DNA of 64,000 nt from an uncultured Planctomycetia bacterium (GTDB taxonomy: Bacteria; Omnitrophota; Gorgyraeia; 2-02-FULL-51-18). The notes beneath the pieces were generated by a model, which made no database searches, was not told where the DNA came from, and saw only the letters and a program-made list of their open reading frames with translations. Below are positions 4,421 to 60,285 of the stretch, piece after piece. The position numbers and the translations under genes are program-made. The stretch's first letter is position 1. Each line of letters starts with the position of its first letter. The DNA lies in contig CAZXLF010000002.1 of assembly GCA_964642015.1 (NCBI GenBank), positions 2,717-66,716 of the forward strand, in the 5' to 3' direction.

Positions 4421-5572
4421 ATGGAAGAACATAGAAAAGAAAAGCTTTTTCTGTTGAATTGCCTGTTGGAGTTAGCGCAGCCGGATCGTTTCGATACCCA
4501 GTCTTCCGCAGATCTTGATTGGGACTGGATCTTCCATTTTGCTTTTTATAATCGTGTGCTGGGTTTTGTCGGTTCTGTGCTCGAGAAAAAAAAGATCTTG
4601 GAAACATTAGGCAAAGAAGGGCGCTATAAGATCTTTTTCGCGATTCAAAGCGATTTACGGAATAATGAGATCAGACGCTCCGAATTCATTGAGCTAAGTT
4701 CGATGCTAAATGTTCATTCGATTTCCGTGATTCCATTGAAAGGCATCGCACTGTCCTACCTGGTTTACGACAAACTTCCTTGCAGACAGATGGTGGATCT
4801 GGACATTTTAGTGCAAAAGGAAGACGTTGAGCGTGTGCTGAAGATATTGGTCGAAAATGAGTTTGATCCGAACAAAGGGCGCACAAGGAACCGTTGGCAT
4901 GATGAAATGAATAAAGATCGAGTTATCTCTCATGCATTGGCATTGCAGGCGAATAGCTTGGGACGATTTGCGATGAGTAACGGAAGATATCAAGTAGACG
5001 TTCATTATGATCCTATTTATGCCAAGGTGAAAATGGATTTAGAACGTGTTTGGAAGCGGTCAACGGCGTATCCATCGATCTCTCCTAACGTACGCATGCT
5101 TGACCCTGTGGATCAATTTTTTCATGTACTTATTCATACCGCTCATTCTCCGTCGATCCGGGGGCTTTTAGACTTGCTCATGATGATGTCAAAATACAGA
5201 CTGGATCCGTCCCAGATAGCGGCGGATAAGGATGCCTCCAATATTCATTGGAAAAAATCGGAAAACCTTTTAAGATCCGTGTTGCAATTGCTCGATGTAG
5301 CAGATGCAGATCATCTTCCAGACCATCTCCTAAATAATTTGGACATCTTTTTTGAGATGACCCAAACAAATGATATGAGCTCAACTCCTGATCTCGGACG
5401 GTTGCGCCGGATCAGGTCGGTTAAGGATTTTTTTCTTTATTTTCTTGGTTACATTGTTCCGAACCCTTATTTTTATAATCGACGCAAAGGGCGCTGGGCG
5501 ATGTACAAGCAGCATTGGAAATCTTTGTATTTCAGGTTTTGCGCGCTTTTTCTAAAAAAAGCCAAGAAATAA
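4421..5572 (+). CDS. Nucleotidyltransferase family protein, PF14907-like; paralog of 10261..11358 and 59317..60285
   Basis: 'ISVIPLKGIALSYLVYDKLPCRQMVDLDILVQKEDVERV' matches the shared PLKG...R-x-M-x-D-(L/I/V)-D-(L/I/V)-(L/I/V) motif of the other two copies. Confidence 0.55.
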   Translation: MEEHRKEKLFLLNCLLELAQPDRFDTQSSADLDWDWIFHFAFYNRVLGFVGSVLEKKKILETLGKEGRYKIFFAIQSDLRNNEIRRSEFIELSSMLNVHSISVIPLKGIALSYLVYDKLPCRQMVDLDILVQKEDVERVLKILVENEFDPNKGRTRNRWHDEMNKDRVISHALALQANSLGRFAMSNGRYQVDVHYDPIYAKVKMDLERVWKRSTAYPSISPNVRMLDPVDQFFHVLIHTAHSPSIRGLLDLLMMMSKYRLDPSQIAADKDASNIHWKKSENLLRSVLQLLDVADADHLPDHLLNNLDIFFEMTQTNDMSSTPDLGRLRRIRSVKDFFLYFLGYIVPNPYFYNRRKGRWAMYKQHWKSLYFRFCALFLKKAKK

Positions 5573-5639
5573 AACTTACGGATTGAGCGAGAGCCGTTAT
5601 TCAGTACGTAAAAAATTGTGGCGGGTCAAAGTTCTTTGC

Positions 5640-5938
5640 TTTTTTACGATCAATGGACGCTTTGACGATCTTGAGAGCGTGCGGCTTTAATTTTTCGCTC
5701 ACATTTTCCCAATTTTTTTCATTCAATTTTTTTCCAGATTTCTGACAAACAAGGGAAGAAGAACATAAGAGTTTTGTTCAAATTTATTTTCCATTTCCAA
5801 TGAAGATGATGGGCGGGAATAGAGTTCCCAGTCTCTGAATGCGTTTTCGCCCGTCAAAAGCGACGCCCGGAAAAGATATTTTTGCTTTGCAGTAAAGCGT
5901 TGGTTTAAAGGAAAGATTGCTGTTTTGCATAAATCCAA
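5640..5938 (-). pseudogene. Deletion scar: the N-terminal 71 aa of a nucleotidyltransferase paralog joined to the C-terminal remnant of a GT2 gene
   Basis: ORF 5723..5938 (MDLCKTAIFPLNQRF...LLPLFVRNLEKN) is ~55% identical to the N-terminus of 10261..11358. The reverse complement of 5590..5700 translates to '..HALKIVKASIDRKKAKNFD', matching the C-terminus 'NVLKIVKASIDRKKSKEL*' of GT2 7235..7954 with a 1-nt frameshift. Confidence 0.6.
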
Positions 5939-7017
5939 TAATATTTATACTAACAAGCAAAGCATATATCAGATACTGTTTTATTTTGAATAGGATGATA
6001 TCATGTTGCCAAAGGGCTTATCTTATGTCGGAAGTTGATGAGAGCGTTATCGCGGGCAAGGACAGGCTGCAGCTTAATTTTCTTTATCTGACCGAGCTCT
6101 TAGCAAATCATTTGAAGATCGGACGCAGGTATCATGATGGCATCCGGAAGAAATTTGAAGCGGCATTTTACGAGCGTTTATTGTCGGCCGGTACAACCGT
6201 GAATCCCCCCGCTCTTCCCGTAGACCGTGTTCGGAAAATATCAGCTGTTGATTTCGCGAATAGCTACCTAAAAAAATACAAACCTGTGGTACTGGAGGGT
6301 TTTTGTGGCTCCTGGCCGGCGTCGAAGAAGTGGAATTTTGACTATTTACTGAATAACTATGGAAATATCCGCATACAGGTCCCTAATAGCTCTGAGAGCG
6401 TAACATTAAGTTCGATCTTGGAATCGATCTTGAATGGATCGGAGCCGCGTTATGTTAATTTTTTACCGCTACTTTTTGCGGCGTCCGACATGAAATCCTC
6501 GGTCGATTATAATGAATTTAAAAGGATCGCAGGACTGCCTGACAAAACCATATTTGTTTCAAAACCCTATATCGGTCAAAAGACATATAAATGCAGCGTT
6601 CACAATGATATTAGCCACAATTTTTTGACGCAATTTCAAGGAGAGAAGACCGTGACACTTTTTCCGCTTTCGCAGACCCCTTTTCTTTATTCCAAGGCGG
6701 AGTGTCCGGCGCCCAGCACTTTTTCCATCCGGACGAGATTTGATAAAGGCACATTACTGGATTCGGAGTTCGAAGCGTTTCCGCTGGCGCGTTTTGCTCA
6801 GCCATTTCAAACCAAACTTTTCCCGGGCGATATCCTTTTTATACCCGCTTTTACTTGGCATCAAGTCTATTACGATACACCGACGATTGGTCTGGGGAAT
6901 TGGTGGGTGGATTTTAAAGATAATTTCCGGATCAGTCCGCTTTTTACTTTGATGAGCCTGCCCCGCTACATTGAGGGCTACCGAATGTATCGCCGTGATT
7001 CTTTTAATACAAAGTGA
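5917..7017 (+). CDS. Cupin-like / JmjC-domain protein, putative 2-oxoglutarate/Fe-dependent hydroxylase; the true start may be the ATG at 6025
   Basis: 'KYKPVVLEGFCGSWPASKKWNFDYLLNNYGNIRIQV' is the typical N-terminal block of cupin_8/JmjC proteins. His/Asp candidates lie in 'CSVHNDISHNF' and 'FTWHQVYY'. Confidence 0.45.
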   Translation: MLFCINPIIFILTSKAYIRYCFILNRMISCCQRAYLMSEVDESVIAGKDRLQLNFLYLTELLANHLKIGRRYHDGIRKKFEAAFYERLLSAGTTVNPPALPVDRVRKISAVDFANSYLKKYKPVVLEGFCGSWPASKKWNFDYLLNNYGNIRIQVPNSSESVTLSSILESILNGSEPRYVNFLPLLFAASDMKSSVDYNEFKRIAGLPDKTIFVSKPYIGQKTYKCSVHNDISHNFLTQFQGEKTVTLFPLSQTPFLYSKAECPAPSTFSIRTRFDKGTLLDSEFEAFPLARFAQPFQTKLFPGDILFIPAFTWHQVYYDTPTIGLGNWWVDFKDNFRISPLFTLMSLPRYIEGYRMYRRDSFNTK

Positions 7018-7128
7018 TTTGATATATCTTTTGAATTATTTTCAGATCCGTATTTTTATCTTTTGATCAAACGTAAAGAGATATTTTTATATTAGGCTTG
7101 AGTTTTTGTTTAATTGACGCTCTTGGGA

Positions 7129-7292
7129 AATCTTTGTATTTCAGGTTTTGCGCGCTTTTTCTAAAAAAAGCCAAGAAATAAAACTTACGGATTGAGCGAG
7201 AGCTGTTATTCAGTACGTAAAAAATTGTGGCGGGTCAAAGTTCTTTGCTTTTTTTGCGGTCAATTGACGCTTTGACGATCTTGAGAACATTT
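7129..7292. repeat. ~165-bp near-identical copy of 5516..5690: convergent gene ends of an NTase (+) and a GT2 (-) plus the intergenic spacer
   Basis: Direct comparison: 'gaaatctttgtatttcaggttttgcgcgctttttctaaaaaaagccaagaaataaaacttacggattgagcgagag...' is present at both sites. Confidence 0.8.
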
Positions 7293-7954
7293 TGTACCGT
7301 CCAGCGCGAATCATTCATTAAATGAGACAGGTTGGAATCATGGATGCGGCGAAGCGTAAGCTTATCGGGAAGAATAGCCATTGGAACGGAAGCTTCCCTC
7401 GCGCGTAAGAACCAATCAGTGTCATCTCCCATTTTAAAAGAAATATTGAAATCGCCTATTTTTTCAAATACCGACCTTCGAGACATCAGTGCACTCGGTA
7501 TGAACGACGCGGCATTGATGTCAGCCATATTTCTTTTAGTTTTTTCATCGAGCCATGATGGGATATCGGAGCCCGTTTCGATAAAATTCTTGATATGGCA
7601 TAGCACAAGTCCTTTATCGGGATTTGCCAAAAGATAATTGACCTGAAGGCGCGTTTTTTGGGGAAGCCACATATCATCCGAATCCAGGAACGAAATAAAT
7701 TCTCCCTTAGATTCCCGAAGCCCTAAATTGCGTGCTTGTGCCGGACCGATCCCTTGATGAGCCTGATAAAAATACCTGACTTTTTTGAAAGAACGGACGA
7801 CCTCGGCTGTTCGATCCGTTGAGCCGTCGTCAACAACGATAACTTCTAACGCTTCATAATCCTGTTTAAACACGCTTTTAAGAGCATCTTGAATGAATTT
7901 TTCGCGATTGTGGACAGGAATGATAACGCTTACTAGCGGTTGGCCGTTGTTCAT
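7235..7954 (-). CDS. Family 2 glycosyltransferase
   Basis: 'LVSVIIPVHNREKFIQDALKSVFKQDYEALEVIVVDDGSTDRT' and 'DSDDMW'. Confidence 0.75.
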   Translation of the reverse strand: MNNGQPLVSVIIPVHNREKFIQDALKSVFKQDYEALEVIVVDDGSTDRTAEVVRSFKKVRYFYQAHQGIGPAQARNLGLRESKGEFISFLDSDDMWLPQKTRLQVNYLLANPDKGLVLCHIKNFIETGSDIPSWLDEKTKRNMADINAASFIPSALMSRRSVFEKIGDFNISFKMGDDTDWFLRAREASVPMAILPDKLTLRRIHDSNLSHLMNDSRWTVQNVLKIVKASIDRKKSKEL

Positions 7955-7960
7955 TTGTGC

Positions 7961-9028
7961 CTACAGTCTGCCTAGCAGTTTCTCAATGCTATTTGGTATT
8001 TCGGTTAAAAGTTTGCCTGTATTCAGGCGGTAACAAGGCAATGACTTGATGATCTTTTTCAAACGCTCGAATTCAGTGGCACCCGAGTCGGGCAGTTGAA
8101 GCAAAGTGTTCGGGGCGACGGCCGAAATCGCTGAGATCGGCGAGATCTCTTCAACTGTTGTGTTTTCATTTTGCGTGTAGTGAGCGATCGTCACGGCTTT
8201 TAACGGAAACCGGTCGATCATTTTATTTTTGAAATGTTGATGCAGAAAGAATAATGATTTTTCGTCTTCCTGCCATTTCGGATCTGTAACAGCCGATATT
8301 CCGATATCAGGAAATTTATGTACGAATTGTTTGAGGAGTTTGGCGGAACTGTAAAGCGGAGAGGCGAAAGGAATATCGTTGTTGAAATAAACGTCAACAA
8401 AATCATCGGCCATCAAACTGAGCGCCGATGAGAGACAGGAAAGGGCTGTGGTTGATTTGCCCGAGCCTGATTTTCCTGCTATCAAGATGCCTCCTGACCG
8501 GTTGCCCACGGCAGCTGCGTGGACTATTTGATGCCCTTTGCTTCTAAGCCACCAGTGAAAAACTGTTTTTAAAGGAGAAGCGATCTCATACAGAGGGATT
8601 GCATTTGGATCTTTTATAAATACAAAAGCTGTTTTTTCGCGGGAATCGACAAAATAAAAATAGTTGGAGCTGCGCAGTCCGATCAGATCTTTACCTTTAA
8701 GGTAGGCGTCGTTCTCCGATATGGACTCCGGCGGTTCGATTTCGGTCGACCCGTCCCATAGATGGAACGTGAATTCGGCCCTGTCAAAAGGTTTGACTTC
8801 GGCGTGCGCGAGCGCAGCCGAAAAAAACGATTTTAAATTTGGACCTGCCGATCTAAAGATCAAATTCTGTCCGGCTATCGTGTAGTAGTATCGCTGTGCG
8901 CCCGATCTTTCAACTGCTTTCTCGAATTGCCGGCGGAAAACTTCCGTCAAAGAATTACTTGGGATTTTGATCGTGTCCAAGATCGGGATTTGGTTTGCGG
9001 TTAGGCCAGCCTTTATCGTCCACATCAT
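7961..9028 (-). CDS. HprK-related P-loop kinase, similar to the HPr kinase C-terminal domain
   Basis: 'GGILIAGKSGSGKSTTAL' resembles the HprK catalytic P-loop (GxLIxGxSGxGKSxxAL). It lies beside a PqqD-family gene and an NTase, as does the paralog 54890..55783. Confidence 0.5.
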   Translation of the reverse strand: MMWTIKAGLTANQIPILDTIKIPSNSLTEVFRRQFEKAVERSGAQRYYYTIAGQNLIFRSAGPNLKSFFSAALAHAEVKPFDRAEFTFHLWDGSTEIEPPESISENDAYLKGKDLIGLRSSNYFYFVDSREKTAFVFIKDPNAIPLYEIASPLKTVFHWWLRSKGHQIVHAAAVGNRSGGILIAGKSGSGKSTTALSCLSSALSLMADDFVDVYFNNDIPFASPLYSSAKLLKQFVHKFPDIGISAVTDPKWQEDEKSLFFLHQHFKNKMIDRFPLKAVTIAHYTQNENTTVEEISPISAISAVAPNTLLQLPDSGATEFERLKKIIKSLPCYRLNTGKLLTEIPNSIEKLLGRL

Positions 9029-9410
9029 GAATGGGGTCGGCTTGGAAGAAGTCTTGCATGTCCGTGTATTTGTGCATCACGGGCGTTTGGAATTTCGCGT
9101 TACGAAGCTCAGCGGGAATATTTTTTTTGGAGGACTCCGTGGAAGGAGAGGGGTCGGCCGTGATCAGCTCTTCTTTTTTAAGCTCATCAAGGAATTTGTT
9201 TACCGCGCCGCTGATTTGGCTCGATTCCGAATGGGTTTCTTTGGAAATGATCTCAATGATTTCATTTTCGGAACTGCCTTGGGAGATGAGATGCCATATC
9301 GCAGCGCCTGTTTTTTCGAGATTATAATAAAATCCGGCTCCCAAATGAATGATTACAGCCTCGCCGTCGATAAGTTCATGAACTACCATGGGTTGAATTT
9401 TAAAATGCAT
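8955..9410 (-). CDS. PqqD-family protein (RRE-like) with a C-terminal extension
   Basis: 'VVHELIDGEAVIIHLGAGFYYNLEKTGAAIWHLISQGSSENEIIEIIS...VNKFLDELKKEELI'. Confidence 0.6.
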   Translation of the reverse strand: MHFKIQPMVVHELIDGEAVIIHLGAGFYYNLEKTGAAIWHLISQGSSENEIIEIISKETHSESSQISGAVNKFLDELKKEELITADPSPSTESSKKNIPAELRNAKFQTPVMHKYTDMQDFFQADPIHDVDDKGWPNRKPNPDLGHDQNPK

Positions 9411-9485: not shown

Positions 9486-10196
9486 CTAGACGGTTTTTTT
9501 ATTTTTGGGATGATTTTTTTTTCTGTCCAAGGAGGCCTTCAGCGCTTTCGCGAACTCGGCTGAAAGATATTGGCGCTGTCTGAGCGTGTTATTTTCATCG
9601 TGGAGGCGCCTGAATAACACAAGCTCTTTGACAGAGGTCATTTTTAGTCCAAGATCTTTGGCTTGCAGATGCCAGTTCAAAAATTCAGTGACCTTCCATT
9701 CCGGTTCAAAGAAACCGACTTTTAAAAAAGAAGCTTTTTTGATGAGTAAAGCGCCCGGGCAAATACCGCTCATGGGTTCTGTCGGGCGCTTGAGAGCTTT
9801 TTCCTTTTCAACGGTGAGTTCGGGAGAAAGAAAATTCCGGATCTGCCCAAATACCATATCCAAAGATTTATCATTGCTGAAAGGCGCCATCATTAATTCA
9901 AGACGATTCTCGGGCCAAACGTCATCGGCATCGAGAAAGGCGATATATTCTCCTTGGGCTAAAGTCACGCCGCGATTTTTCGGCGAAGCAAGCCCTTGAT
10001 GTTCTTGATAAAAATAGCGGATCTTCGCGCCGTAGCTTTGCGCTATTTTTTCGGTATCATCCGTCGAGCCGTCATTGATAACGATGATTTCGGTTGAAGG
10101 ATAAGTTTGGACAATCGCGCTGTCTATAGCTTCTCGCAGATATCGACCGTAGTTGTAAGCTGCAATGATGACGCTGATCAGAGGGGATCGTTTCAA
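9486..10196 (-). CDS. Family 2 glycosyltransferase
   Basis: 'LISVIIAAYNYGRYLREAIDSAIVQTYPSTEIIVINDGSTDDT' and 'LDADDVW'. Confidence 0.75.
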   Translation of the reverse strand: MKRSPLISVIIAAYNYGRYLREAIDSAIVQTYPSTEIIVINDGSTDDTEKIAQSYGAKIRYFYQEHQGLASPKNRGVTLAQGEYIAFLDADDVWPENRLELMMAPFSNDKSLDMVFGQIRNFLSPELTVEKEKALKRPTEPMSGICPGALLIKKASFLKVGFFEPEWKVTEFLNWHLQAKDLGLKMTSVKELVLFRRLHDENNTLRQRQYLSAEFAKALKASLDRKKNHPKNKKTV

Positions 10197-10260: not shown

Positions 10261-11358
10261 TTAATTAGGCGTTTTCTTTTTTAGAAGTTTATTCACCGCT
10301 GCCATGGGTAATTTCCACCATTTTTTTACATGCCATCGGTACATCAGATAAACGCGGAATCCCGATATTTTGGTAAACCAATTTTCAGATCGCATGCCGC
10401 GGTAAAATTGAGACCAAATATCCAGAGCTTTTCTAAATCTAGATCGACCGTTGCCGATAAAAGGAGAAGTATTTAATACCAAGCAGACACGCTCATCGAT
10501 GGATATTTCCAGCGCATCGAGTTCTTTCAAGACCGTTTTAGGAGCAGAGGTTCCGAGCGTTTCCATTAAATAATGAAGGCCGATGCGTAAAGCCAGACAA
10601 CGGTTTTGCCGTTTTGATCTTTCGATCACTGTGTTCCAATCAACCGGAAAGGCAGTGCTATTGACCAGCACGAACATATCCGAGACCCAACGAAGATTCC
10701 ACGCTTTCGGCTCCTGCATGAAGTGTAAAAGATCTGTTGGGCTGAGCGCCGGTACACTGATATCGTCCAAAGAAACGGCGATGGCATTTTCCCAATTTTT
10801 TTCATTGGCGAACCAATGCACGTCAATTCTTGCACCTTCTTTGTTTTCGAACTCTTTGGCGAATGAATAATCACTCACGCGGTTCCATCCGGACTCTTCC
10901 AATATCCTCAAAGCATCGTTCAGATTTTCGGGTTTGACGATAATATCCACGTCTTTCATATAACGGACACCCATGTCGCAATAGTGAGTCGTCGCTATAG
11001 ATGCTCCTTTGAAGATCATGACTTTTATGCCGCATTCGTTCATTTTTTTGATCGCCGATGCAGCCGAATGCAAAAGGATCTGATTTTTCGTCCATGTATG
11101 GCGGTAAACACCACGGTATTTGGCTGGAAGCAGTTCGCTGCGCCCATGTTTTTCCAGATTTCGAAAGAACAAAGGCAGAAGGGTATATGCTGCTTGTTCG
11201 AATTCTGCTTCTATCTCTTGCGGAGACAGTGGGCGAGAGAATTGTTCCCAACTTTTGAGAGCTTCATCGCCCTGCAGAAGGGACGCGCGTAAAAGCTGTT
11301 CATGTTCCGCCGTGAAGAGTTTTTTTAAAGGATAAATTTCGGTTTTTGTTTTTTTCAT
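10261..11358 (-). CDS. Nucleotidyltransferase family protein, PF14907-like
   Basis: 'CGIKVMIFKGASIATTHYCDMGVRYMKDVDIIVKPENLNDALRIL' is paralogous to 4421..5572 and 59317..60285. Confidence 0.55.
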   Translation of the reverse strand: MKKTKTEIYPLKKLFTAEHEQLLRASLLQGDEALKSWEQFSRPLSPQEIEAEFEQAAYTLLPLFFRNLEKHGRSELLPAKYRGVYRHTWTKNQILLHSAASAIKKMNECGIKVMIFKGASIATTHYCDMGVRYMKDVDIIVKPENLNDALRILEESGWNRVSDYSFAKEFENKEGARIDVHWFANEKNWENAIAVSLDDISVPALSPTDLLHFMQEPKAWNLRWVSDMFVLVNSTAFPVDWNTVIERSKRQNRCLALRIGLHYLMETLGTSAPKTVLKELDALEISIDERVCLVLNTSPFIGNGRSRFRKALDIWSQFYRGMRSENWFTKISGFRVYLMYRWHVKKWWKLPMAAVNKLLKKKTPN

Positions 11359-11555
11359 GACATCTTTTCAATATGCTAACAAACGCGCCGCAAGAACGCA
11401 AAACCTTCGCTTTTTTCATTAATGCCGAAAAACTTTATCAGACTGACGAATTTGGTATTAAATATAAGACCGGATATGGTCTGTAAATTTATTTAGATCC
11501 GCCGAGCCCTAAAAGGGTCTTCCCAGCCTCTAGGATCTCATGGTAACATAAAAAA

Positions 11556-37911: not shown

Positions 37912-37984
<73 letters not shown>

Positions 37985-38222: not shown

Positions 38223-38268
38223 AGATTTAATGGGTGAGAAAGAGTTAAGGCGACTCTAAAAGATTTCG

Positions 38269-38344
<76 letters not shown>

Positions 38345-52361: not shown

Positions 52362-52658
52362 ATGGATACGAAAGATCTGATCTTTTCAAAAAATCCCAAT
52401 TTTGTCTTCCGCCAGATAGCCGGTGAGTCTTTATTGATCCCGATCCGAAAAAAACTGAATCAAGTGAACAGTCTTTACGTCTTAAATGAGACAGCGGCCG
52501 CTTTTTGGAACCGGTTGGACGGCCAATGCTCCATAAACCGCATTTTGAATGATCTCACGCAGGTATTCGATGTGTCACTCGAGCAACTTGAGCAAGATAC
52601 GTCAGTGTTGGTCCAGGATCTTTTGAGCATCGAGGCTATTCAAGAAGCCATTTCTTAA
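52362..52658 (+). CDS. PqqD-family RiPP recognition element (peptide chaperone)
   Basis: 'FRQIAGESLLIPIRKKLNQVNSLYVLNETAAAFWNRLDGQCSINRILNDLTQVFDVSLEQLEQDTSVLVQDLLSIEAI' is a strong PqqD pattern. Confidence 0.75.
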   Translation: MDTKDLIFSKNPNFVFRQIAGESLLIPIRKKLNQVNSLYVLNETAAAFWNRLDGQCSINRILNDLTQVFDVSLEQLEQDTSVLVQDLLSIEAIQEAIS

Positions 52659-53575: not shown

Positions 53576-54693
53576 TCTTAAATCCGAATAAGATCTCCAA
53601 AATGGAATATGGTGATTTTAGTCTTAACATTCATGAGAAGGCCGGCACAGAATGCGTGATCAAAGCGCAGATGGAACTTACTTACCGCTGCAATCTCCAT
53701 TGCCGTCATTGTTATACCGACCCTTTCAATCGTAAGGAGTATTTCCCTAAAGAAATGGAATTGGCGGAGGTTAAAAGGATTCTTGATGAAATGGCGGCGT
53801 TGGGGATCTTATGGCTTAACTTCACCGGCGGCGAAGCGTTGATGAGAAAGGATTTCTTTGAGATCTATGATTACGCGTGGGCTAAAGGTTTTATTTTGAC
53901 GCTTTATACCAACGGCACCATGATCACTGAATCGGTGATCAACAAATTAAAAGATAAACCGCCGTTTTTTATCGATGTCTCATGTCACTCGATAACCGAA
54001 GAGAGTTTTGATTGGTTTACGCAAGTCAAAGGGTCGTTTCGTCATTTTCTCAAGAGCATGGAACTCTTGAAAGCGAGCGGCTTGCCTTTCCGGATGAAAA
54101 CGATCGGGATGAATTGGAACAAGAAAGAGCTGCCGTACATAAAGGAATATGTCGAATCTTTTGGGATTTCCTTTCATCCAACCACAGCTCTTTATCCAAG
54201 ATTAACCGGCGATCTTGAGCCTTTGAAATTGAGGCTTTCTCCTGAGGAAGCGGTCGATCTGCAGGTTGGATCAGAGGTATTTCAGGAAGATGAATGTCTT
54301 GACTCAGACTCTGTTTACAGCACTATTCCAAACCGACTTTATCGCTGTACTTGCGCGACTAATGCGATCCATATCAACGCATGGGCGGAACTTGGCACCT
54401 GCGGGTTGGAATATGAGGCCAGAGCTTCTCTTCGAGAATATTCTTTAAAGGAGGCTATCTCACAGGTTTTTGAGAAAGTTCGCTCGCTCAGGTTTGAAAC
54501 AAACACACCTTGCCGGGATTGTTCGCTATTCTCATTTTGCAACAAAAAGCCGACCTCTGCGCGTTGGGAATTCAAAGACCCCCAGAGGGCGAATCCTTAT
54601 GAATGTGATGTAGCTTTTTTAAAAGCGTCGCGGTTAACAGGTAAAACACAAATGCACCCGTTAAAAAAAGAGGAGAGTGGCTATGCCGGATAA
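53572..54693 (+). CDS. Radical SAM enzyme with a SPASM-like C-terminal domain (rSAM-2)
   Basis: 'YRCNLHCRHCYTD', and C-terminal 'CTCATNA...GTCG...CRDCSLFSFC'. It is paralogous to rSAM-1 ('FFEIYDYA..KGF...ysNGT.IT'). Confidence 0.75.
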   Translation: MILNPNKISKMEYGDFSLNIHEKAGTECVIKAQMELTYRCNLHCRHCYTDPFNRKEYFPKEMELAEVKRILDEMAALGILWLNFTGGEALMRKDFFEIYDYAWAKGFILTLYTNGTMITESVINKLKDKPPFFIDVSCHSITEESFDWFTQVKGSFRHFLKSMELLKASGLPFRMKTIGMNWNKKELPYIKEYVESFGISFHPTTALYPRLTGDLEPLKLRLSPEEAVDLQVGSEVFQEDECLDSDSVYSTIPNRLYRCTCATNAIHINAWAELGTCGLEYEARASLREYSLKEAISQVFEKVRSLRFETNTPCRDCSLFSFCNKKPTSARWEFKDPQRANPYECDVAFLKASRLTGKTQMHPLKKEESGYAG

Positions 54694-54865
54694 AAAGAAG
54701 TACATTACGCCTCAAATATTTGAGGTCCCGTTAAGGCAAGAACAGGCTGTGCTTACTAGTTGCAATACTAATTGGTCCAATTCTACATCCGGCGGAAATG
54801 GCAAGTGCACCAGCGGTGGATGTAAAAATGGAGGAGGGACCAATAATGCAAACCCTCCATCTTAA
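54683..54865 (+). CDS. Candidate RiPP precursor peptide, 60 aa: MPDKKKYITPQIFEVPLRQEQAVLTSCNTNWSNSTSGGNGKCTSGGCKNGGGTNNANPPS
   Basis: A Shine–Dalgarno 'aggagag' lies 7 nt upstream of the ATG (an alternative GTG is at 54677). The charged/hydrophobic leader is followed by a Gly/Ser/Thr/Asn-rich core with 3 Cys, 1 Trp and 2 Lys. The gene sits between rSAM-2 and the kinase. Confidence 0.7.
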   Translation: MPDKKKYITPQIFEVPLRQEQAVLTSCNTNWSNSTSGGNGKCTSGGCKNGGGTNNANPPS

Positions 54866-54889: not shown

Positions 54890-55783
54890 ATGCTGATTTC
54901 ATTGGGGATTGGCGGCTATAAAGTTTCAATAGAAGAGCCTAGAGATCGTTTCTGCTTTTTTTGGCCTCTTGCTAGATTTGAACCATTTCTTTCTAATGAA
55001 ACAGCGAATTCAGATATCACTGTTAAAGTCCATATCGTTAAAAAACTAGCAGTGCTTAATAATGAAAATTTGATCTTTGATTCCGGAATAGGTTATTGGA
55101 AACTTTATGATAATGGGCCTAAGGGTTATTTATTTGAAAGTTGCCGTGCAGAGAATGGCCGGCTTTTTTTGCAAGCGGCCATATCGCATGATCTTTCAGA
55201 GGTTGAAGTGACCGTCAAAGAAACCCGCATGAAAGGTAGTGCGCGCGGCGGTTGGGGGCCTGCCACTATTATCAGTCCGCTTCTCGAATTTGTGCTTCAG
55301 GAGAAACTTGCTAGAGATGGCGGCGTGATGCTTCACAGCTCCGCAATATTGGCAGAAAATGAAGTGCTTGTTTTTTTTGGCCCTTCCGGTGCCGGTAAAT
55401 CAACAGCGGCAAATTTTTTTCTGAATAAAGGATATACAGTTCTCAATGATGAGCGCGTGATCATCCGGCGGGAAGGCGACGAGTTTAAAGCATATGGTAC
55501 TCCATGGCCCGGTTCAAGTTTTCTTTATTCGGGTGCACAGGGTCGAATGAGACAGATTTTTAAAATCGGCCATGGGCAGGGAAAGCATATGTTAAATAAA
55601 ATGTCGACCAGAGTAATGATGGCCACTTTATTTCAAGAGGCCTACTTGCCCCATTGGACCGTGATGGGAATGGATAAAACAACTCGTTTTTTTGAGGAAC
55701 TGGCAACTACTTTTGGTTCTCTTGAACTTTTATTTTGTAAATCTTCGGATATCGTTGACTTCCTAACAGAAATTTTTTTTTAA
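54890..55783 (+). CDS. HprK-related P-loop kinase (HPr kinase C-terminal-domain-like)
   Basis: 'VLVFFGPSGAGKSTAANFF' Walker A. Its size and context match 7961..9028. Confidence 0.55.
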   Translation: MLISLGIGGYKVSIEEPRDRFCFFWPLARFEPFLSNETANSDITVKVHIVKKLAVLNNENLIFDSGIGYWKLYDNGPKGYLFESCRAENGRLFLQAAISHDLSEVEVTVKETRMKGSARGGWGPATIISPLLEFVLQEKLARDGGVMLHSSAILAENEVLVFFGPSGAGKSTAANFFLNKGYTVLNDERVIIRREGDEFKAYGTPWPGSSFLYSGAQGRMRQIFKIGHGQGKHMLNKMSTRVMMATLFQEAYLPHWTVMGMDKTTRFFEELATTFGSLELLFCKSSDIVDFLTEIFF

Positions 55784-55796: not shown

Positions 55797-56843
55797 ATGA
55801 AAATTTTAAACGAGAATATTCTCTATCAATCCGTCGCTTTAGGTTCAAAGACCGAAAAGATACCTTCAAAAGTTTTATTTGAGTTAACTTATGGCTGCAA
55901 TTTCCGCTGCGTACATTGTTATAATCCCACACATCAGGCGCGGCCTGAAGAGCTTTCAACAAAAGAAATACATCGAATCTTAAATGAAATTGCAGACTTG
56001 GGTGTTTTATCTATCATTTTTACAGGCGGGGAATTATTTACACGTCCTGATATTTTAGAAATTCTCGAGCATGCCAAGCGATTAGGGCTTTTAATCGACA
56101 TTTTTACCAATGCGAGCCTGTTAACAGACTTGATCGTTAAAAGGCTTGATGAATTAGGGATCCGCGACATGGTCGTTTCGATTTATGGAACGACTCCGTC
56201 CACATTTGAAAAGGTCACTCGTCAAGCGAACTCTTATGAGCGTTTCTTGCGTGGAATCGTGGCGCTTGCAAAATCCTCTTTGAATGTCCACATTCGAATT
56301 CCTCTATTAACTTTGAATAAACATGAAGCCGAGACCGCCAAACTGTTTGTCGAAAGTATGGGATTTCCGTTTCGCTTTTATCTTGAAATTGAGCCTCGCC
56401 AAGATGGTAATCAAGAACCGTTGCAGTACAATCTTAATGCGGGTGAAAAAATGGATATTTTAAAAAGATTACGTCCAGAGGCTTTGGAAAAACCTCCTTT
56501 TGAAGAAAAGCAATTTTCAACGGATTTTATTGAATGCGCTTGCGGTAAGGAACAGTTCGCAGTGACTCCCTACGGAAAAATGAACTTTTGCGTTTCTTTT
56601 CCAACACCGAATTATGACTTGCGCTGCGGTACCGTCAAAGAAGGCTGGCAAATACTTCAGAAATTGGTCCGAGAAGCTAAACCCAATGAAAATTATCATT
56701 GTCCTGGCTGTGACGTCCGGTCGTTTTGCCAGCAAGGTCGTAGCGATGCCTGGCTCGAAACAGGCGACATGAGCGTATGCCTCCCACGTTTTAAAGAAGC
56801 CGCCACTCTTCATAAGACAGCGGTCATTCATAAGACGATCTGA
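55797..56843 (+). CDS. Radical SAM enzyme with a SPASM-like C-terminal domain (rSAM-3)
   Basis: 'YGCNFRCVHCYNP', and C-terminal 'CACGKEQ...CVSF...RCGT...CPGCDVRSFCQ'. Confidence 0.75.
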   Translation: MKILNENILYQSVALGSKTEKIPSKVLFELTYGCNFRCVHCYNPTHQARPEELSTKEIHRILNEIADLGVLSIIFTGGELFTRPDILEILEHAKRLGLLIDIFTNASLLTDLIVKRLDELGIRDMVVSIYGTTPSTFEKVTRQANSYERFLRGIVALAKSSLNVHIRIPLLTLNKHEAETAKLFVESMGFPFRFYLEIEPRQDGNQEPLQYNLNAGEKMDILKRLRPEALEKPPFEEKQFSTDFIECACGKEQFAVTPYGKMNFCVSFPTPNYDLRCGTVKEGWQILQKLVREAKPNENYHCPGCDVRSFCQQGRSDAWLETGDMSVCLPRFKEAATLHKTAVIHKTI

Positions 56844-56955: not shown

Positions 56956-57777
56956 ATGATCAATCTGTTACAATCCACGGAATCAGATGGAAGATTTTCC
57001 TTGCAAGAAATAATACAAACAGAGGATTCCGATCTGTCGCTTACTTTTAAGACGGCTGGTTGGAGCATGTTTCCTACGTTAAGGAACAATGACTGCATTG
57101 AGCTTTCGAGAATCCAAGATTACGAAGTAGGAGATCTTGTTGTTTTTCGTCAAAATAACAGGTTAATTTGCCACCGCATCTCAGAGATTCATTTGAATGG
57201 CCGGATACGGACGAGTAGTATCGGAGGTGAACATTTCATTCGGCAAAACGATATTTTGGGCAAAGTCAATTCGATCATTCGAGGCAAAAACCATTTTTGT
57301 CCTTCGAAAACCCAGAAAAAACTACAACTATTCGATCGTTTTTGGATCCATTTGAATATAAATTTAGAAACTATTCAGAATAAGTGTCGTGAATTAATGT
57401 TTGATGTATTTGTTTTGATCAACCGGATCCTGATCTTTAATCAGATCATTTTATTTTTTATGAATAAAAACGTTCACTATTCGATCGGTTCTAAAGCTCA
57501 GGTTGGTCCATTGGATTGCTACCGATTGATTCCTGTTCAGAAAAAGCTCACGCAAGGTTCGATGATTGCGTTAAAGGAAAGTCTAAAAAATGGTAAAGAC
57601 TGTTCAATCCTTGTCGCGCAATTGGCAGGACGTTATGCGGCGACTTTTGAATTTGCTTCAGGCAAAGTATGGCTTCATGACCGTCTAAAAATTACGAATT
57701 TCAAAGCAGAGATTTCACGCTTTGCAGAAAAACTGTGTCACGAATTGAAAGGATATTGTGAACTTAGCGGTGATTGA
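56956..57777 (+). CDS. S24/S26-type serine peptidase domain (signal-peptidase-I/LexA-like) fused to a ~180-aa uncharacterised C-terminal domain; candidate leader peptidase
   Basis: 'TAGWSMFPTLRNNDCIELSRIQDYEVGDLVVF' matches the G-x-SM-x-PTL catalytic-Ser box of S26/S24 peptidases. Confidence 0.5.
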   Translation: MINLLQSTESDGRFSLQEIIQTEDSDLSLTFKTAGWSMFPTLRNNDCIELSRIQDYEVGDLVVFRQNNRLICHRISEIHLNGRIRTSSIGGEHFIRQNDILGKVNSIIRGKNHFCPSKTQKKLQLFDRFWIHLNINLETIQNKCRELMFDVFVLINRILIFNQIILFFMNKNVHYSIGSKAQVGPLDCYRLIPVQKKLTQGSMIALKESLKNGKDCSILVAQLAGRYAATFEFASGKVWLHDRLKITNFKAEISRFAEKLCHELKGYCELSGD

Positions 57778-58558
57778 AGCAACAAATCTAACAAAAACCT
57801 ACTCAGCCGGCACGGGATTATTGGACTGGCTTTTTCGGAATTCATCTATGAAGCCAAAAACAACGGCTCTCAACGGTGTAAATTTACGCATCGAGAAAGG
57901 CGAAATCATCACTTTGCTTGGGCCTAACGGCGCAGGCAAAACGACCCTCATAAAAATTTTAGCCGGTCTTATGACTCCGGACAGTGGTAACGTTAATATT
58001 TGCGGTTTTGACACGGTCAAAGATCTTGCGAAAACTAAACAGTGCGTGAGTCTAGTGCTGGGTGAAGAGAAGAGTTTTTACTGGCGGCTTACAGGACGTC
58101 AAAATCTCGAGTTTTTTGGAATTCTTTACAATCTTTCAAGAGATCGCATCCGCCAAAAGATCAAACAGGCGGCCGAGCTTCTTGACCTCGATCTGGACAA
58201 ACGCTACCAGGAATGTTCGACGGGTATGAAATTTCGTCTGGCGCTGGCGCGTGGATTTTTGAGCGATGCAAAATTGATCCTGATGGATGAACCGACTAGA
58301 AGTTTGGATCCTAATGTAGCAAACCGGCTGAGGGAATTGATCAAAACAATGCGTAACGAGAAAGGATGCGCGTTTTTTTTCGCCACACACGATGTCCATG
58401 AGGCCGAAACGGTCGCCGATAGGATTGTAATCTTGGATCAGGGAAAGATCAGGGCAAGCGGAAGATTGAGCGATCTAAGAAATATTTTAGGGAACAATGA
58501 GGCATCAGTGGAAGATATCTTTCAGCGTGTGACCATCGAGGATCAGTATGTTTTTTAG
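57758..58558 (+). CDS. ABC transporter ATP-binding protein
   Basis: Walker A 'GPNGAGKTT', Q-loop, signature-like 'CSTGMKFRLALARG', Walker B 'ILMDEPT'. Confidence 0.8.
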   Translation: MNLAVIEATNLTKTYSAGTGLLDWLFRNSSMKPKTTALNGVNLRIEKGEIITLLGPNGAGKTTLIKILAGLMTPDSGNVNICGFDTVKDLAKTKQCVSLVLGEEKSFYWRLTGRQNLEFFGILYNLSRDRIRQKIKQAAELLDLDLDKRYQECSTGMKFRLALARGFLSDAKLILMDEPTRSLDPNVANRLRELIKTMRNEKGCAFFFATHDVHEAETVADRIVILDQGKIRASGRLSDLRNILGNNEASVEDIFQRVTIEDQYVF

Positions 58559-59357
58559 AAAATTTTTTGCGATCATATACCGCGATGCGCTCGAAGCATT
58601 AAGTTACAAAACCGCATTTTTTACCGATTTATTAGCGATGACAGCACAGCTCTTGATCTTCTTTTTTGTGGGGCGCATGATCGGGCCGCAGGCAGCCCCG
58701 TTTCTTAGTGAATATGGCGGTGAGTATTTTCCATTCGTGCTTATTGGTATTGCTGTCGCAGGGTTTTGTATGGCCGGTACGAACAGCTTCACTGGTACGA
58801 TCATGAAGGAGCAGGGCGACGGAACGCTTGAGGCCATTTTTGTGACCCCGACCTCTCTTGGTGTATTCATGTTCACGGGATTTATTCGGACATTCGTTTC
58901 AAGCTCCTGTCGGGTATTTGTGTTTTTATTGATGGGGTTGTTATTTTTTAAGATACGTTTACCTATGGTTAACATCCCGGTTTTCTTGCTTCTTCTGGTC
59001 TTGTCGATGGTCGTTTTTGGAAGTTTTGGGCTTTTTTCAGGAGGAGCATTGCTCGTGCTTAAAAGAGGTGATCCTTTCACGCATTTGTTCAATGCCGCTT
59101 CTCGTTTTCTTGCAGGCGTTTATTTTCCTGTTACGCTTCTGCCGCTGTGGCTTCAAAAGGTTTCTTTATGGATGCCGATGACCTATGCGCTTCAGGCGAT
59201 AAGAAAGGCGGTTCTAATCGGTGCCTCTGTTCATGATCTGCAGGCGGAGATGATCACACTGGCGCTTTTTTCGGCCGTTTTATTTTTTTGCGGCATAGCT
59301 TTTTTTAACTGGTGTTTTGAGAAAGCTCGAAAGGAAGGATCCCTTGCTTTCCGCTAA
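58548..59357 (+). CDS. ABC-2 type transporter permease
   Basis: 269 aa with six TM helices. Its start overlaps the ATPase gene end. Confidence 0.65.
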   Translation: MFFRKFFAIIYRDALEALSYKTAFFTDLLAMTAQLLIFFFVGRMIGPQAAPFLSEYGGEYFPFVLIGIAVAGFCMAGTNSFTGTIMKEQGDGTLEAIFVTPTSLGVFMFTGFIRTFVSSSCRVFVFLLMGLLFFKIRLPMVNIPVFLLLLVLSMVVFGSFGLFSGGALLVLKRGDPFTHLFNAASRFLAGVYFPVTLLPLWLQKVSLWMPMTYALQAIRKAVLIGASVHDLQAEMITLALFSAVLFFCGIAFFNWCFEKARKEGSLAFR

Positions 59358-60285
59358 ACCATTTTTGGAAGAAACTTTTTCCACGAACCACTTGGATTAC
59401 GAACGTGTGCTTACCCGAAACCGCAGGAGGCTTGATTTCCTTTTGGAGCTCGAAAGCGATCTAGCGATGGAGAACGTTGATCTTTTACCTTTAAAAGGGA
59501 TGGATCTTTTAATACGCGCTTATCCCTCGCTGGGAATGCGCCCGATGACTGATATTGATCTCCTCATCCATAAAAAAGACATCCCAAAAGTGAAGCGGTT
59601 GCTGGAGCATAAAGATCTGCAATGGTCCGCTGATGAGAACCTTAGCTACTATGACCCCAATTCTTTTATCATTTTAGATATCGTTTGGAATGTCTGGTAC
59701 ATGCCGGACTCGCGGCCGGTTTGGCAGCGTTCATCGCTTTATGCGACAAATGAAGGCAAAGCATTAAAATTGATGCATTCCGAAGATGCTTTGACCTATT
59801 TGATCGCTTATACGATAGCGCATCGCACAGAAATAAATTCTATTTTTTTACAAGACCTCAAATTTTTTTTGGATAAAGAATCCCATAAAATTGATTGGGA
59901 CCACTGGGCTTCAACAGTGAAAAACCTTCACTTAGGCCCAACAGTTTTTTATGGGTTGTCTTACGTCAGAAAAAGTGGGCTCGAAAGCATTCCGGAAGAA
60001 ATAGTTTGTAAACTTCGTCCAACCTCCTATGCGGAAAAAAAATTAAATTTTTATTATCAAAATGTTTTGGAACTAAAAAAAAAGCCGGCGAATTATTTGC
60101 GGACTTGGCTAAGTTATCCGGGATGGAGAGGTAAAATAAAGCTATTACGTATTAAATTTTTGCCTTCCAAATGGCAATTTGAATTGCGTTTTGGACGAAA
60201 AAGCTGGTTAAAATACCTGATTTTTTGCTTCGCCCATCCTTTCTGTGTATTATTCCGTGCCCTCACTGGCCCTTTTATTGAATAA
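59317..60285 (+). CDS. Nucleotidyltransferase family protein, PF14907-like
   Basis: 'VDLLPLKGMDLLIRAYPSLGMRPMTDIDLLIHKKDIPKV' carries the same motif as 4421..5572 and 10261..11358. Confidence 0.55.
   Translation: MRKLERKDPLLSAKPFLEETFSTNHLDYERVLTRNRRRLDFLLELESDLAMENVDLLPLKGMDLLIRAYPSLGMRPMTDIDLLIHKKDIPKVKRLLEHKDLQWSADENLSYYDPNSFIILDIVWNVWYMPDSRPVWQRSSLYATNEGKALKLMHSEDALTYLIAYTIAHRTEINSIFLQDLKFFLDKESHKIDWDHWASTVKNLHLGPTVFYGLSYVRKSGLESIPEEIVCKLRPTSYAEKKLNFYYQNVLELKKKPANYLRTWLSYPGWRGKIKLLRIKFLPSKWQFELRFGRKSWLKYLIFCFAHPFCVLFRALTGPFIE

Follow-up and report, generated by a model that had tools for sequence, protein, structure and literature searches.

The three PF14907 (NTP_transf_5) nucleotidyltransferases encoded in the window, by which we mean the whole 64,000-nucleotide stretch of DNA that was analysed, are best explained as non-orthologous members of one family, each the tailoring enzyme of a separate PqqD-type RRE module. 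Our whole reading, to which we assign a probability of about 0.6, is that these separate modules present a Ser/Thr residue that the HprK-like kinase would phosphorylate, and that the PF14907 enzyme would then add a sugar to the phosphate. Both the phosphorylation step and the sugar-on-phosphate chemistry are proposed by analogy with PsmK/PsmN and LppK.

NT1, NT2 and NT3 (Table 1) are members of PF14907 and have a polymerase-beta-type nucleotidyltransferase fold. The initial annotation had suggested this family, and scores of 116, 107 and 95 bits (E values from 2.7e-33 to 6.7e-27) against a Pfam cut-off of 31.2 bits place all three copies firmly within it. The three reading frames that it had called intact are so; NT2 is encoded on the minus strand, and NT3 has a TTG start. 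The catalytic G...D.D...D set is present in every copy: K117, G118, R132, D136, D138 and D179 (NT2 numbering) are invariant when the three window copies are aligned, and four of them (G118, R132, D136 and D138) show no variation across an alignment of 42 sequences either. NT1 carries the KG...R.M.D.D and DVH motifs. The core motif said to be shared by the copies is found overall, with the qualification that the second copy reads FKG instead of PLKG. In public gene calls NT3 begins at M62 (P0006, residues 62-322), a start at which the KG motif would be lost.

Each copy belongs to a gene module with its own PqqD-type RRE, and two of the three modules also include an HprK-like kinase, so that the reported proximity of each copy to a PqqD and/or an HprK-like gene is real in the window. 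Module 1 consists of PqqD_a, a GT2 glycosyltransferase and NT1, and has no kinase of its own; the start of NT1 is divergent from the GT2 gene, and the tail motif of PqqD_a is similar to that in locus L021. Module 2, on the minus strand, consists of NT2, a GT2, PqqD_b, an HprK-like kinase whose start lies 4 nt past the PqqD_b stop, and a second GT2; it is an instance of an operon found in many phyla. Module 3, on the plus strand at 52.4-60.3 kb, is a cluster resembling those for linear polyphosphorylated peptides (LPP) with three radical SAM enzymes, and comprises PqqD_c, these three enzymes, a candidate precursor peptide, an HprK-like kinase, a signal-peptidase-like protease, an ABC exporter and NT3. 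Both kinases of the window are assigned from sub-threshold HprK/ScmC matches together with a P-loop. PqqD_c, a third PqqD gene overlooked by the initial annotation, was detected with a PqqD profile made from window and locus sequences. Among small free-standing ORFs around the modules, the candidate precursor alone has a YxxPx[LIV] motif, and this exact ORF is absent from public protein sets. The protease also matches a signal peptidase I model of the archaeal type at 27.6 bits, under the cut-off of that model.

Table 1. Features of the window discussed in the text, with coordinates, strand and supporting matches
Feature	Coordinates	Strand	Details
901-nt duplicate of 3529-4429	104-1004	.	blastn 90% identity; ends 9 nt into NT1 frame
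PqqD_a (RRE), 131 aa	2599-2994	-	Pfam PqqD 56 bits; short tail LYKKPTMKRYEQLHEIGVGS
GT2 glycosyltransferase between PqqD_a and NT1	3226-4320	-	NCBIfam GT2-type matches; template of 901-nt duplication
NT1, PF14907 nucleotidyltransferase-fold protein, 383 aa	4421-5572	+	116 bits, E 2.7e-33
Direct repeat, about 160 nt	5517-5676 and 7126-7286	.	97% identity over 161 nt
N-terminal remnant of fourth, NT2-like copy, 71 aa	5723-5938	-	55% identity to NT2 residues 1-71, E 3e-24
Cupin_8/JmjC-like gene	5917-7017	+	Pfam PF13621, E 1.1e-28; within repeat-bracketed insert
GT2 glycosyltransferase	7235-7954	-	Glycos_transf_2; 6 nt downstream of kinase A
HprK-like kinase A, 329 aa	7961-8950	-	Hpr_kinase_C 30 bits; HprK_rel_A/B, P-loop; PF27840 ScmC match
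PqqD_b (RRE), 151 aa	8955-9410	-	Pfam PqqD 52.5 bits; conserved tail KFQTPVMHKYTDMQDFFQADPIHDVDDKGWPNRKP
GT2 glycosyltransferase between NT2 and PqqD_b	9486-10196	-	Glycos_transf_2; homologues in 66/80 loci
NT2, PF14907 protein, 365 aa	10261-11358	-	Member of widespread PqqD-tail operon
Double GT2 protein	11556-13016	+	Two Glycos_transf_2 domains; divergent from NT2
PqqD_c (RRE), 98 aa, tailless	52362-52658	+	First gene of cluster; weak NCBIfam PqqD matches, E 2.9e-6
Radical SAM genes, two	52676-53575; 53572-54693 (SPASM-type match)	+	Pfam Radical_SAM; NCBIfam radical SAM/SPASM maturase families
Candidate precursor peptide MAMPDKKKYITPQIFEVPL...CTSGGCKNGGGTNNANPPS	54677-54865	+	YxxPx[LIV] RRE-binding motif
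HprK-like kinase B, 297 aa	54890-55783	+	HprK_rel_B, HprK_rel_A and ScmC matches, P-loop; phmmer family member
Radical SAM/SPASM maturase	55797-56843	+	NCBIfam matches: sactipeptide, PqqE and mycofactocin maturases
S24/S26 signal-peptidase-I-like protease	56956-57777	+	GWSMFPTL, HR box; Pfam Peptidase_S24 25.7 bits, cut-off 23.3
ABC exporter	ATPase 57758-58558; ABC-2 permease 58548-59357	+	Pfam ABC_tran, ABC2_membrane
NT3, PF14907 protein, 322 aa	59317-60285	+	TTG start, shorter N-terminus; Pfam 95 bits, match from residue 28

The operon to which NT2 belongs is widespread and unnamed, and unites a PqqD protein, an HprK-like kinase that is often fused to a GT2, further GT2 enzymes, an ABC exporter and the PF14907 protein in more than 12 phyla. 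Across 80 related genome loci from these phyla, each of ~21 kb, PqqD was present in 65, an HprK-like gene in 62 and both in 60, mostly on the same strand; the co-occurrence put forward in the initial annotation is thus conserved well beyond the window. Two same-strand gene orders recur in this set, P-K-N (28 loci) and P-N-K (18 loci), and independent gene calls with Pfam labels give PqqD, NTP_transf_5, ABC, ScmC/HprK and GT2 in order. GT2 homologues occur at 66 loci of this set, and 38 of the 80 have an ABC exporter. At 22 loci, full-length homologues of kinase A are fusions in which one ORF of ~600 aa or more unites the HprK-like domain with a GT2; the GT2 that follows kinase A in the window, itself with homologues in 66/80 loci, is equivalent to their GT2 half. 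Neither PqqD nor kinase was detected near the nucleotidyltransferase in 13/80 loci (several of these contigs are short), and the related loci contained no conserved stand-alone small ORF or separate precursor gene.

The C-terminal tail of PqqD_b is a candidate substrate in module 2. Relatives of PqqD_b form at least 4092 clusters, and the tail consensus, FxxPxLxKY[T/S]DMQDLLLLDPIHEVDxxGWP, is nearly invariant in 183 sequences. Its candidate acceptor position is T or S in 167 of these, and D, E, A, H or N in ~9%. The best Foldseek match of the AF2 model (pLDDT 82.6) is the TbiB1 lasso RRE with bound leader, and target TM-scores against lasso B1 RRE structures that include their leaders (5v1v, 5v1u, 6jx3) range from 0.88 to 0.94. 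The tail segment F107xxP110xM lines up with the YxxPxL-type leader motif, and a strand is confidently predicted there (at 111-115). From this predicted secondary structure and its confidence, the tail probably docks on its own RRE; by analogy with the studied systems, it may also be the substrate of the kinase and NT2. Against its being a substrate stand the ~9% of sequences with another residue at the acceptor position and the conservation across phyla, which is unusual for a RiPP substrate core; the tail could instead serve for docking.

In the mechanism that we propose, the RRE would bind a (Y/F)xxPx(L/M/I) motif, located on the C-terminal tail of the RRE protein itself in modules 1 and 2 and on a separate peptide in module 3. 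The HprK-like kinase would phosphorylate a nearby Ser/Thr, for which T116 in KYTDMQD is the candidate in PqqD_b, and the Asp triad of the PF14907 enzyme, with a nucleotide-activated donor, would furnish that phosphate with either a sugar in phosphodiester linkage or a nucleotide intermediate. The adjoining GT2 enzymes would lengthen the sugar chain, and the ABC transporter would export the product. The function of the PF14907 enzymes, described in the initial annotation as unknown, is not wholly so. Their homologue PsmN is needed to attach one or two hexoses (162-Da additions) to the phosphoserine that the HprK-like kinase PsmK generates, and its D134A/D136A mutant is inactive (PMC6993621). 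PsmN showed no in-vitro activity (PMC11912497), and the literature reports none for any PF14907 enzyme; deletion of lppN, whose product belongs to the same module type, caused no change in a heterologous host (PMC13381572). PF14907 occurs in fusions with a sugar epimerase, GT41 and a chitobiase C-terminal domain, which point to sugar chemistry. Of the options named in the initial annotation, peptide nucleotidylation and sugar-donor handling are both still candidate mechanisms.

These same fusions, together with the lack of a peptide-level effect of LppN in the heterologous host (PMC13381572), would also suit a different target, a polysaccharide or lipid-linked intermediate on which PF14907 would act while PqqD and the kinase regulate or scaffold. 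LicD and FKRP exemplify such chemistry, in which a CDP/UDP-activated donor supplies the phospho-sugar or phospho-alditol group. All copies do lie in or beside glycosyltransferase or polysaccharide-export loci (GT1, GT2, Wza, Wzc). We nevertheless consider a polysaccharide target unlikely, if worth keeping in view: genes for a lasso-type RRE and for an HprK-like kinase are tightly linked on the same strand to that for PF14907 (both in 60 of the 80 loci), the RRE fold is specialised in peptide binding, and the genetics of PsmN indicate a product borne on the peptide. It is far less probable that the copies have nothing to do with their neighbours and act as MenT/AbiEii-type toxins or as ANT(2'')/Lnu-type enzymes that modify antibiotics. 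Identity to such proteins is just 9-15% and no PDB chains were matched by sequence; the window proteins are ~2x longer, with conserved extra helical regions and full-length family matches, and they have no antitoxin-like partner but share a conserved operon with an RRE, a kinase, a GT2 and an ABC exporter.

A remaining explanation concerns history, namely that the copies arose by recent local amplification as lineage-specific, functionally redundant paralogues, the stub and fragment being decayed extra copies. Three copies and two remnants do fall within 64 kb, the first locus does contain segmental duplications, and none of the 80 comparison loci, each merely ~21 kb long, has three or more copies. 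The 12-nt stub ATGGAAGAATAA exists and is not a chance match, but it lies at 996-1007 rather than 1007-1018, and it is the edge of the 901-nt duplication, which covers the 5' part of the GT2 gene and the intergenic region between the two divergent genes, but no more than the first 9 nt of NT1. The GT2 copy in this duplicate (minus strand) stays open for 298 codons, running through the window start, and is hence an intact paralogue, not debris. The 71-aa fragment is a genuine N-terminal remnant as annotated; its identity to NT2 is only 55%, blastn found no DNA-level match between the two, and tblastn found no further remnant sequence downstream. A direct repeat that the initial annotation had missed flanks this fragment and the Cupin_8 gene, which has homologues in 0/80 related loci; it duplicates the 3' end of NT1, whose last 17 codons recur at 7128-7178, as well as that of the GT2 gene at 7235-7954. 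The intact copies themselves are distant from one another: pairwise BLASTP alignments, at 23-29% identity, cover only about 50-165 core residues, contrary to the claim of similar N-termini, and every copy has better matches among proteins of other phyla (62-316 bits) than in its window-mates (30-41 bits). They occupy two loci 48 kb apart, NT3 lying beyond 36 kb of unrelated housekeeping genes. To call this an expanded family, in the sense of local amplification, is therefore misleading; the data do not support a recent expansion in the window, redundant amplified paralogues are scarcely credible, and only the stub and fragment, both in the first locus, bear witness to local duplication and rearrangement.

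Returning to separate RRE modules with non-orthologous tailoring enzymes, the closest studied relatives, judged by the papers' descriptions and matching Asp positions, are PsmN and LppN. PsmN, compared by description, comes from the cluster of pseudomycoidin, a paeninodin-like lasso peptide of Bacillus pseudomycoides; unlike that cluster, the scanned window ORFs included no lasso cyclase or B2 protease, and the window host has an outer membrane (LptF/G, Wza). The LPP clusters of Bacillota (PMC13381572) resemble module 3 in their RRE, HprK-like kinase, signal-peptidase-I-like protease, exporter, NTP transferase and adjoining polysaccharide genes, and the YxxPx(hydrophobic) motif of the LPP leader is shared with the module 3 peptide. 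Module 3 differs in its three additional radical SAM enzymes, in a two-part ABC-2 exporter where that of LPP is MsbA-like, and in a peptide that lacks the remainder of the LPP leader consensus; modules 1 and 2, unlike LPP, have neither peptidase nor separate precursor. The lasso B1 proteins (TbiB1, 5v1v/5v1u; 6jx3) superpose on the N-terminal 90 residues of PqqD_b at 19-34% identity, and the YxxPxL that they bind resembles the FxxPxM of its tail. In PqqD_b, however, motif and RRE form one protein, in which a near-invariant acidic DPIHEVD..GWP segment comes after the motif, an arrangement not described in the papers that we found. The ANT(2'')/LnuA nucleotidyltransferases and FKRP/LicD phosphotransferases share 12-15% identity with the PF14907 proteins, which carry additional helical regions at both termini and lie among different genes. 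Finally, the SynChlorMet cassette (ScmC, ScmD, ScmE, ScmF) and the NCBIfam HprK-related kinase A/B systems combine the same HprK-like P-loop, PqqD-like and radical SAM/SPASM proteins; matches to ScmC, ScmD, ScmE, ScmF and HprK_rel_A/B are weak, all of them well short of the curated cut-offs (e.g., 17-33 bits against 125-200), and the window families are related to, rather than the same as, the SynChlorMet and HprK_rel families.

The three nucleotidyltransferases NT1, NT2, and NT3 are best read as nucleotidyltransferase-fold tailoring enzymes belonging to three distinct modules built around a PqqD-type RRE (a peptide-binding domain), two of which have a kinase of their own. All three ORFs are intact where the initial annotation placed them, and a Pfam check assigned them to PF14907 with scores of 116, 107, and 95 bits, respectively, against a gathering threshold of 31.2 bits; in NCBIfam, no model reaches its cut-off for any of them or for the nucleotidyltransferases of two related operons. 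In NT2 numbering, K117, G118, R132, M134, D136, D138, and D179 are common to the three copies, and G118, R132, D136, and D138 are invariant in a 42-sequence alignment. Each copy carries the polymerase-beta-type signature G...D.D...D, searched for as G[SGA]-x(9-17)-D-x-D plus a third acidic residue, and the 3D fold resembles that of solved nucleotidyltransferases; a PDB sequence search with the family profile returned nothing meaningful. The PLKG core described as shared by the copies holds for NT1 and NT3, while NT2 reads FKG.

These genes are not the product of a recent amplification, and "expansion" was the wrong word for them. In pairwise BLASTP comparisons, NT1, NT2, and NT3 align only in the core, over 45 to 165 residues at 23 to 29% identity (30 to 41 bits), and the N-termini, which had been called similar, do not align. 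NT1 and NT3 score 62 to 75 bits against members of the NT2 phmmer set, exceeding any score among the window copies, and the three are therefore deep, separate lineages. Context and divergence led us to drop the recent-amplification reading, as well as the readings of these proteins as toxins or antibiotic resistance enzymes.

Coordinates and content of the principal features of the window
Feature	Position	Strand	Description
Glycosyltransferase-rich locus	1-15 kb		GT1, PqqD_a, GT2, NT1, fragment, Cupin_8, GT2, HprK-like kinase, PqqD_b, GT2, NT2, double GT2, membrane protein, epimerase
Unrelated stretch	16-52 kb		GH15, sensor kinases, sigma/anti-sigma pair, GH16, tRNAs, CofD, GH57, PTS enzyme I, MetK, AhcY, LptF/G
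Module 3	52.4-60.3 kb	one strand	PqqD_c, radical SAM, radical SAM/SPASM, 62-codon peptide ORF, HprK-like kinase, radical SAM/SPASM, S24/S26 signal-peptidase-like protease, ABC ATPase, ABC-2 permease, NT3
GT2 paralogue	2-895	-	open for 298 codons, past the window start
Duplication	3529-4429, copied at 104-1004		90% identity, gap-free
Stub	996-1007		ATGGAAGAATAA
PqqD_a	2599-2994	-	module 1
GT2	3226-4320		module 1
NT1	4421-5572	+	module 1
Direct repeat	5517-5676 and 7126-7286		97% identity
Fragment	5723-5938	-	71-codon ORF
Cupin_8/JmjC-like	5917-7017	+	possible hydroxylase
GT2	7235-7954	-	module 2
HprK-like kinase	7961-8950	-	module 2
PqqD_b	8955-9410	-	module 2
GT2	9486-10196	-	module 2
NT2	10261-11358	-	module 2
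37-codon gene call	11373-11486		
Border ORF	13032-14171	-	379 aa; no Pfam match
tRNA-His	22999-23076		truncated 5'-half copies, with upstream sequence, at ~15284-15347 and ~20640-20767
GH16 paralogues	29955-31803	+	in tandem; 69% nucleotide identity
Second interval listed with GH16 entry	37491-38344	+	
tRNA cluster			four genes (Arg, Lys, Leu, Gly)
Border ORF	51289-52308	+	no Pfam match
PqqD_c	52362-52658	+	module 3
Peptide ORF	54677-54865	+	module 3
HprK-like kinase	54890-55783	+	module 3
Signal-peptidase-like protease	56956-57777		module 3
NT3	59317-60285	+	module 3; TTG start (M62 in public gene calls)

What did change is the first locus itself. The 71-codon fragment, annotated as a remnant of the family, has no PF14907 match of its own in a Pfam scan; it is 55% identical to residues 1 to 71 of NT2 (E 3e-24), with no further piece downstream and no DNA-level match to NT2, and it is therefore what is left of a fourth gene resembling NT2. 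The stub proposed as a second remnant is present, at 996-1007 and not at the 1007-1018 given for it, and is meaningful only because the duplication whose edge it marks carries over the 5' part of the module 1 GT2 gene, the intergenic region between the divergent genes, and NT1 as far as its ninth nucleotide. The direct repeat copies the last 17 codons of NT1 together with the 3' end of the module 2 GT2 gene at 7235-7954, and it flanks the fragment and the Cupin_8 gene. Duplication and repeat together indicate that this locus was rearranged, without any recent amplification of its nucleotidyltransferase genes.

Several other features of the window deserve mention. The first ~180 residues of the GT2 paralogue at the window start are a near-exact match to the module 1 GT2. 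The Cupin_8 gene, which lies within the repeat-bracketed insert beside the fragment, has no homologue in 80 related loci. The truncated tRNA-His copies may have been left behind by islands that inserted beside the first glycosyltransferase/nucleotidyltransferase locus, and the short repeats around the GH16 and tRNA region are accounted for by the four-tRNA-gene cluster. Of the two ORFs that border the modules, the one at 13032-14171 looks like a multi-pass membrane protein and has no NCBIfam match; an unannotated gene of similar size is present in locus L084. The sequence is metagenomic, and LptF/G and Wza indicate a host with an outer membrane.

An exhaustive phmmer search with NT2 matched 7180 representative clusters at an E value of ≤1e-3 and 242 at ≤1e-30, mostly over nearly the full length, the closest being 41% identical. 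A word-indexed search returned only NT2 itself when queried with NT2 and six proteins when queried with a profile of the three copies; NT2 and its closest relative, used as the query, found no locus among GTDB representatives. We sampled the subfamily around NT2 as 80 loci of up to ~21 kb each from GTDB species representatives. Since the locus scan was queried with the GS[YF]RLLPLLY subfamily, which is 30 to 40% identical to NT2, the co-occurrence counts that follow describe the wider clade of NT2 and not NT1 or NT3. These loci span taxa including Chloroflexota, Nitrospirota, Cyanobacteria, Planctomycetota, Acidobacteriota, Desulfobacterota, Bacteroidota, Verrucomicrobiota, Actinomycetota, Spirochaetia, Clostridia, and one Bathyarchaeia MAG.

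The window's own proteins served as neighborhood queries, and the HprK-like count was taken from first-pass phmmer matches only; on iteration, the HprK profile began to take in P-loop ATPases in general, going from 66 to ~200 matches, and the iterations were left out. A PqqD-like ORF was present in 65 of the 80 loci, an HprK-like ORF in 62, and both in 60, with the same-strand order PqqD-kinase-nucleotidyltransferase in 28 loci and PqqD-nucleotidyltransferase-kinase in 18. Homologues of the window's small GT2 enzymes occurred in 66/80 loci and an ABC exporter in 38/80. Kinase and GT2 form a single ORF of ~600 aa or more in 22 loci (L004, L014, L027, L028, L033, L034, L037-L045, L050, L058, L060, L061, L067, L074, and L080); in the window (7235-8950) they are separate genes with 6 nt between them. 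Two further contigs, with independent gene calls and precomputed Pfam labels, have the same gene order. Against the NCBIfam models HprK_rel_A, HprK_rel_B, and ScmC, the kinases score 17 to 33 bits in the window and 32 to 36 bits in related operons, below the cut-offs of 125 to 200, and across NCBIfam the kinases and tailed PqqD proteins of the window and two related operons stay below the cut-off of every model.

Module 2 (NT2, PqqD_b, kinase, and GT2s) is a member of a widespread operon of tailed PqqD, kinase, GT2 enzymes, and nucleotidyltransferase, joined by an ABC exporter in about half of its relatives, for which no name appears to be in use. In the window, no ABC exporter adjoins module 2; MsbA-like exporters are found in copies of this operon family in other genomes. 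NT2 and NT3 each have a PqqD-type RRE and an HprK-like kinase alongside, whereas NT1, in module 1, a reduced or divergent variant, has a PqqD without a kinase of its own. Two Smithella loci contain two trios of PqqD, kinase, and nucleotidyltransferase side by side, and 7 of the 80 loci hold at least two nucleotidyltransferase genes, so multiple modules are not peculiar to the window. In one Smithella locus, an ORF that by eye resembles a lasso B2 or transglutaminase-type protease comes after the second trio, and behind it lies a large ORF resembling a radical SAM enzyme (L039, 5106-7111); these by-eye calls suggest that the same enzyme set may combine with different maturases.

The PqqD proteins of NT2-type operons are nearly all ~150 residues long; in each, a variable linker connects the RRE domain to a tail whose consensus is F-E-A-P-V-L-N-K-Y-[T/S]-D-M-Q-D-L-L-L-L-D-P-I-H-E-V-D-E-T-G-W-P-x-x-K-P, which in PqqD_b reads KFQTPVMHKYTDMQDFFQADPIHDVDDKGWPNRKP. 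DPIH keeps its D, P, and H unchanged throughout 183 sequences, of which 167 carry T or S at the T/S position. At least 4092 clusters (90% identity) with this tail came out of a profile search, named in their sources only "PqqD family" or "hypothetical"; the tail region lies outside every Pfam and NCBIfam model, and a literature search yielded no description of an RRE-tail fusion. An AF2 model of PqqD_b (120 sequences; pLDDT 82.6) has the RRE fold, residues 111-115 forming a confidently predicted strand and 118-123 a helix, and its top Foldseek matches are lasso B1 RREs crystallized with YxxPxL leaders (5v1v, 5v1u, and 6jx3). The 80 loci contain no conserved stand-alone small ORF that could be a separate precursor, only clusters among close relatives, and the 37-codon gene call beside NT2 has no leader-like motif. 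PqqD_c has no tail, and its cluster encodes a free peptide with KKYITPQIFEVPL instead. PqqD_a ends in a short tail of a different type, LYKKPTMKRYEQLHEIGVGS, resembling only that of a Binatia locus (L021, 5787-6179; YQPPQLTRFGELEKLILSGE); judging from these two sequences, it may represent a second tail type.

Two published systems provide a chemical frame. The lasso peptide pseudomycoidin is phosphorylated at its C-terminal serine by the HprK-like PsmK. The attachment of one or two 162-Da hexoses to this phosphate requires PsmN, an uncharacterized NTP transferase modelled on ANT(2''), and the D134A/D136A variant is inactive (PMC6993621). Its authors left standing both a new kind of glycosyltransferase and a maker of the donor substrate (PMC6993621), and in-vitro PsmN activity was still lacking in 2025 (PMC11912497). 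The linear polyphosphorylated peptides (LPPs) of Bacillota, defined in 2026, have as core genes a precursor, the kinase LppK, the RRE LppB, the signal-peptidase-like LppS, an exporter, and the NTP transferase LppN, set within capsular polysaccharide loci; LppK acts on a single serine, phosphorylating it several times, and deletion of lppN had no visible effect in a heterologous host (PMC13381572). NT1, NT2, and NT3 are probably related to PsmN and LppN, judging from the annotation in these papers and the matching Asp-pair positions.

Gene content, fold, motifs, and synteny are observed here, and for the chemistry we infer from PsmK/PsmN and LppK a pathway in which the RRE would present a Ser/Thr beside a (Y/F)xxPx(L/M/I) motif, the kinase would phosphorylate it, the PF14907 enzyme would build a sugar or nucleotide intermediate on the phosphate, the GT2 enzymes would extend the sugar, and the product would be exported. 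The function, first annotated as unknown, is in this sense partly known by analogy, and the initial observation largely stands apart from the "expansion." More speculatively, and with odds well short of even, the ~150-residue PqqD of the NT2-type operon may be a fused RRE and substrate: the RRE would bind the protein's own near-invariant tail, the HprK-like kinase would phosphorylate it, and the PF14907 and GT2 enzymes would convert it to a phosphodiester-linked glycan, yielding an exported glyco-phospho-protein or a protein primer for polysaccharide. The main rival is that PF14907 enzymes act on a glycan and not on a peptide at all. It is kept alive by the similarity to FKRP and by relatives fused to a sugar epimerase, GT41, or a chitobiase C-terminal domain (others being tandem doubles).

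If the tail is indeed the substrate, the operon would represent an undescribed pathway spanning over a dozen bacterial phyla, with at least one archaeal MAG besides, and PF14907 would gain its first defined substrate. The chemistry of this large family has been hard to study: PsmN works in vivo but not elsewhere, and LppN was silent when expressed in a heterologous host. A simpler, conserved system is available in the window and its relatives, consisting of an RRE that carries its own invariant tail, a kinase that in many cases is fused to GT2, a nucleotidyltransferase, and an exporter; as the chaperone may itself contain the substrate, what PF14907 enzymes transfer becomes testable with three or four genes. 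The three-copy finding itself is a new instance of something already known; the tailed-PqqD operon is a variant for which we found no description, and a compact system for settling what these enzymes do.

Module 3 resembles the LPP clusters. Its peptide ORF, absent as called from public protein sets, lies between two radical SAM/SPASM genes and encodes a peptide whose C-terminus is rich in Gly, Asn, Ser, Thr, and Cys; of the LPP leader YxxPxVLxHQxIxFETxxS, its YITPQIFEVPL matches the YxxPx(hydrophobic) part only. The protease has SMxPT and HR motifs and scores 25.7 bits against Pfam Peptidase_S24 (cut-off, 23.3) and 27.6 bits against TIGR02228, the model for the archaeal-type signal peptidase I (cut-off, 51.85). 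Whereas LPP clusters have an MsbA-like fused exporter (PMC13381572), module 3 has a separate ATPase and ABC-2 permease, and it adds radical SAM maturases. Because both the leader consensus and the MsbA-type pump are lacking, we term module 3 LPP-like and not a member. Wza- and Wzc-type export genes come after it, and Pfam scans of the window's large ORFs detected neither the asparagine-synthetase-like cyclase nor the B2 protease of lasso clusters. The RRE, HprK, and NTP-transferase set previously known from lasso and LPP clusters reaches well beyond Bacillota, into outer-membrane bacteria, where it lies inside exopolysaccharide loci and, in one case, alongside radical SAM maturases.
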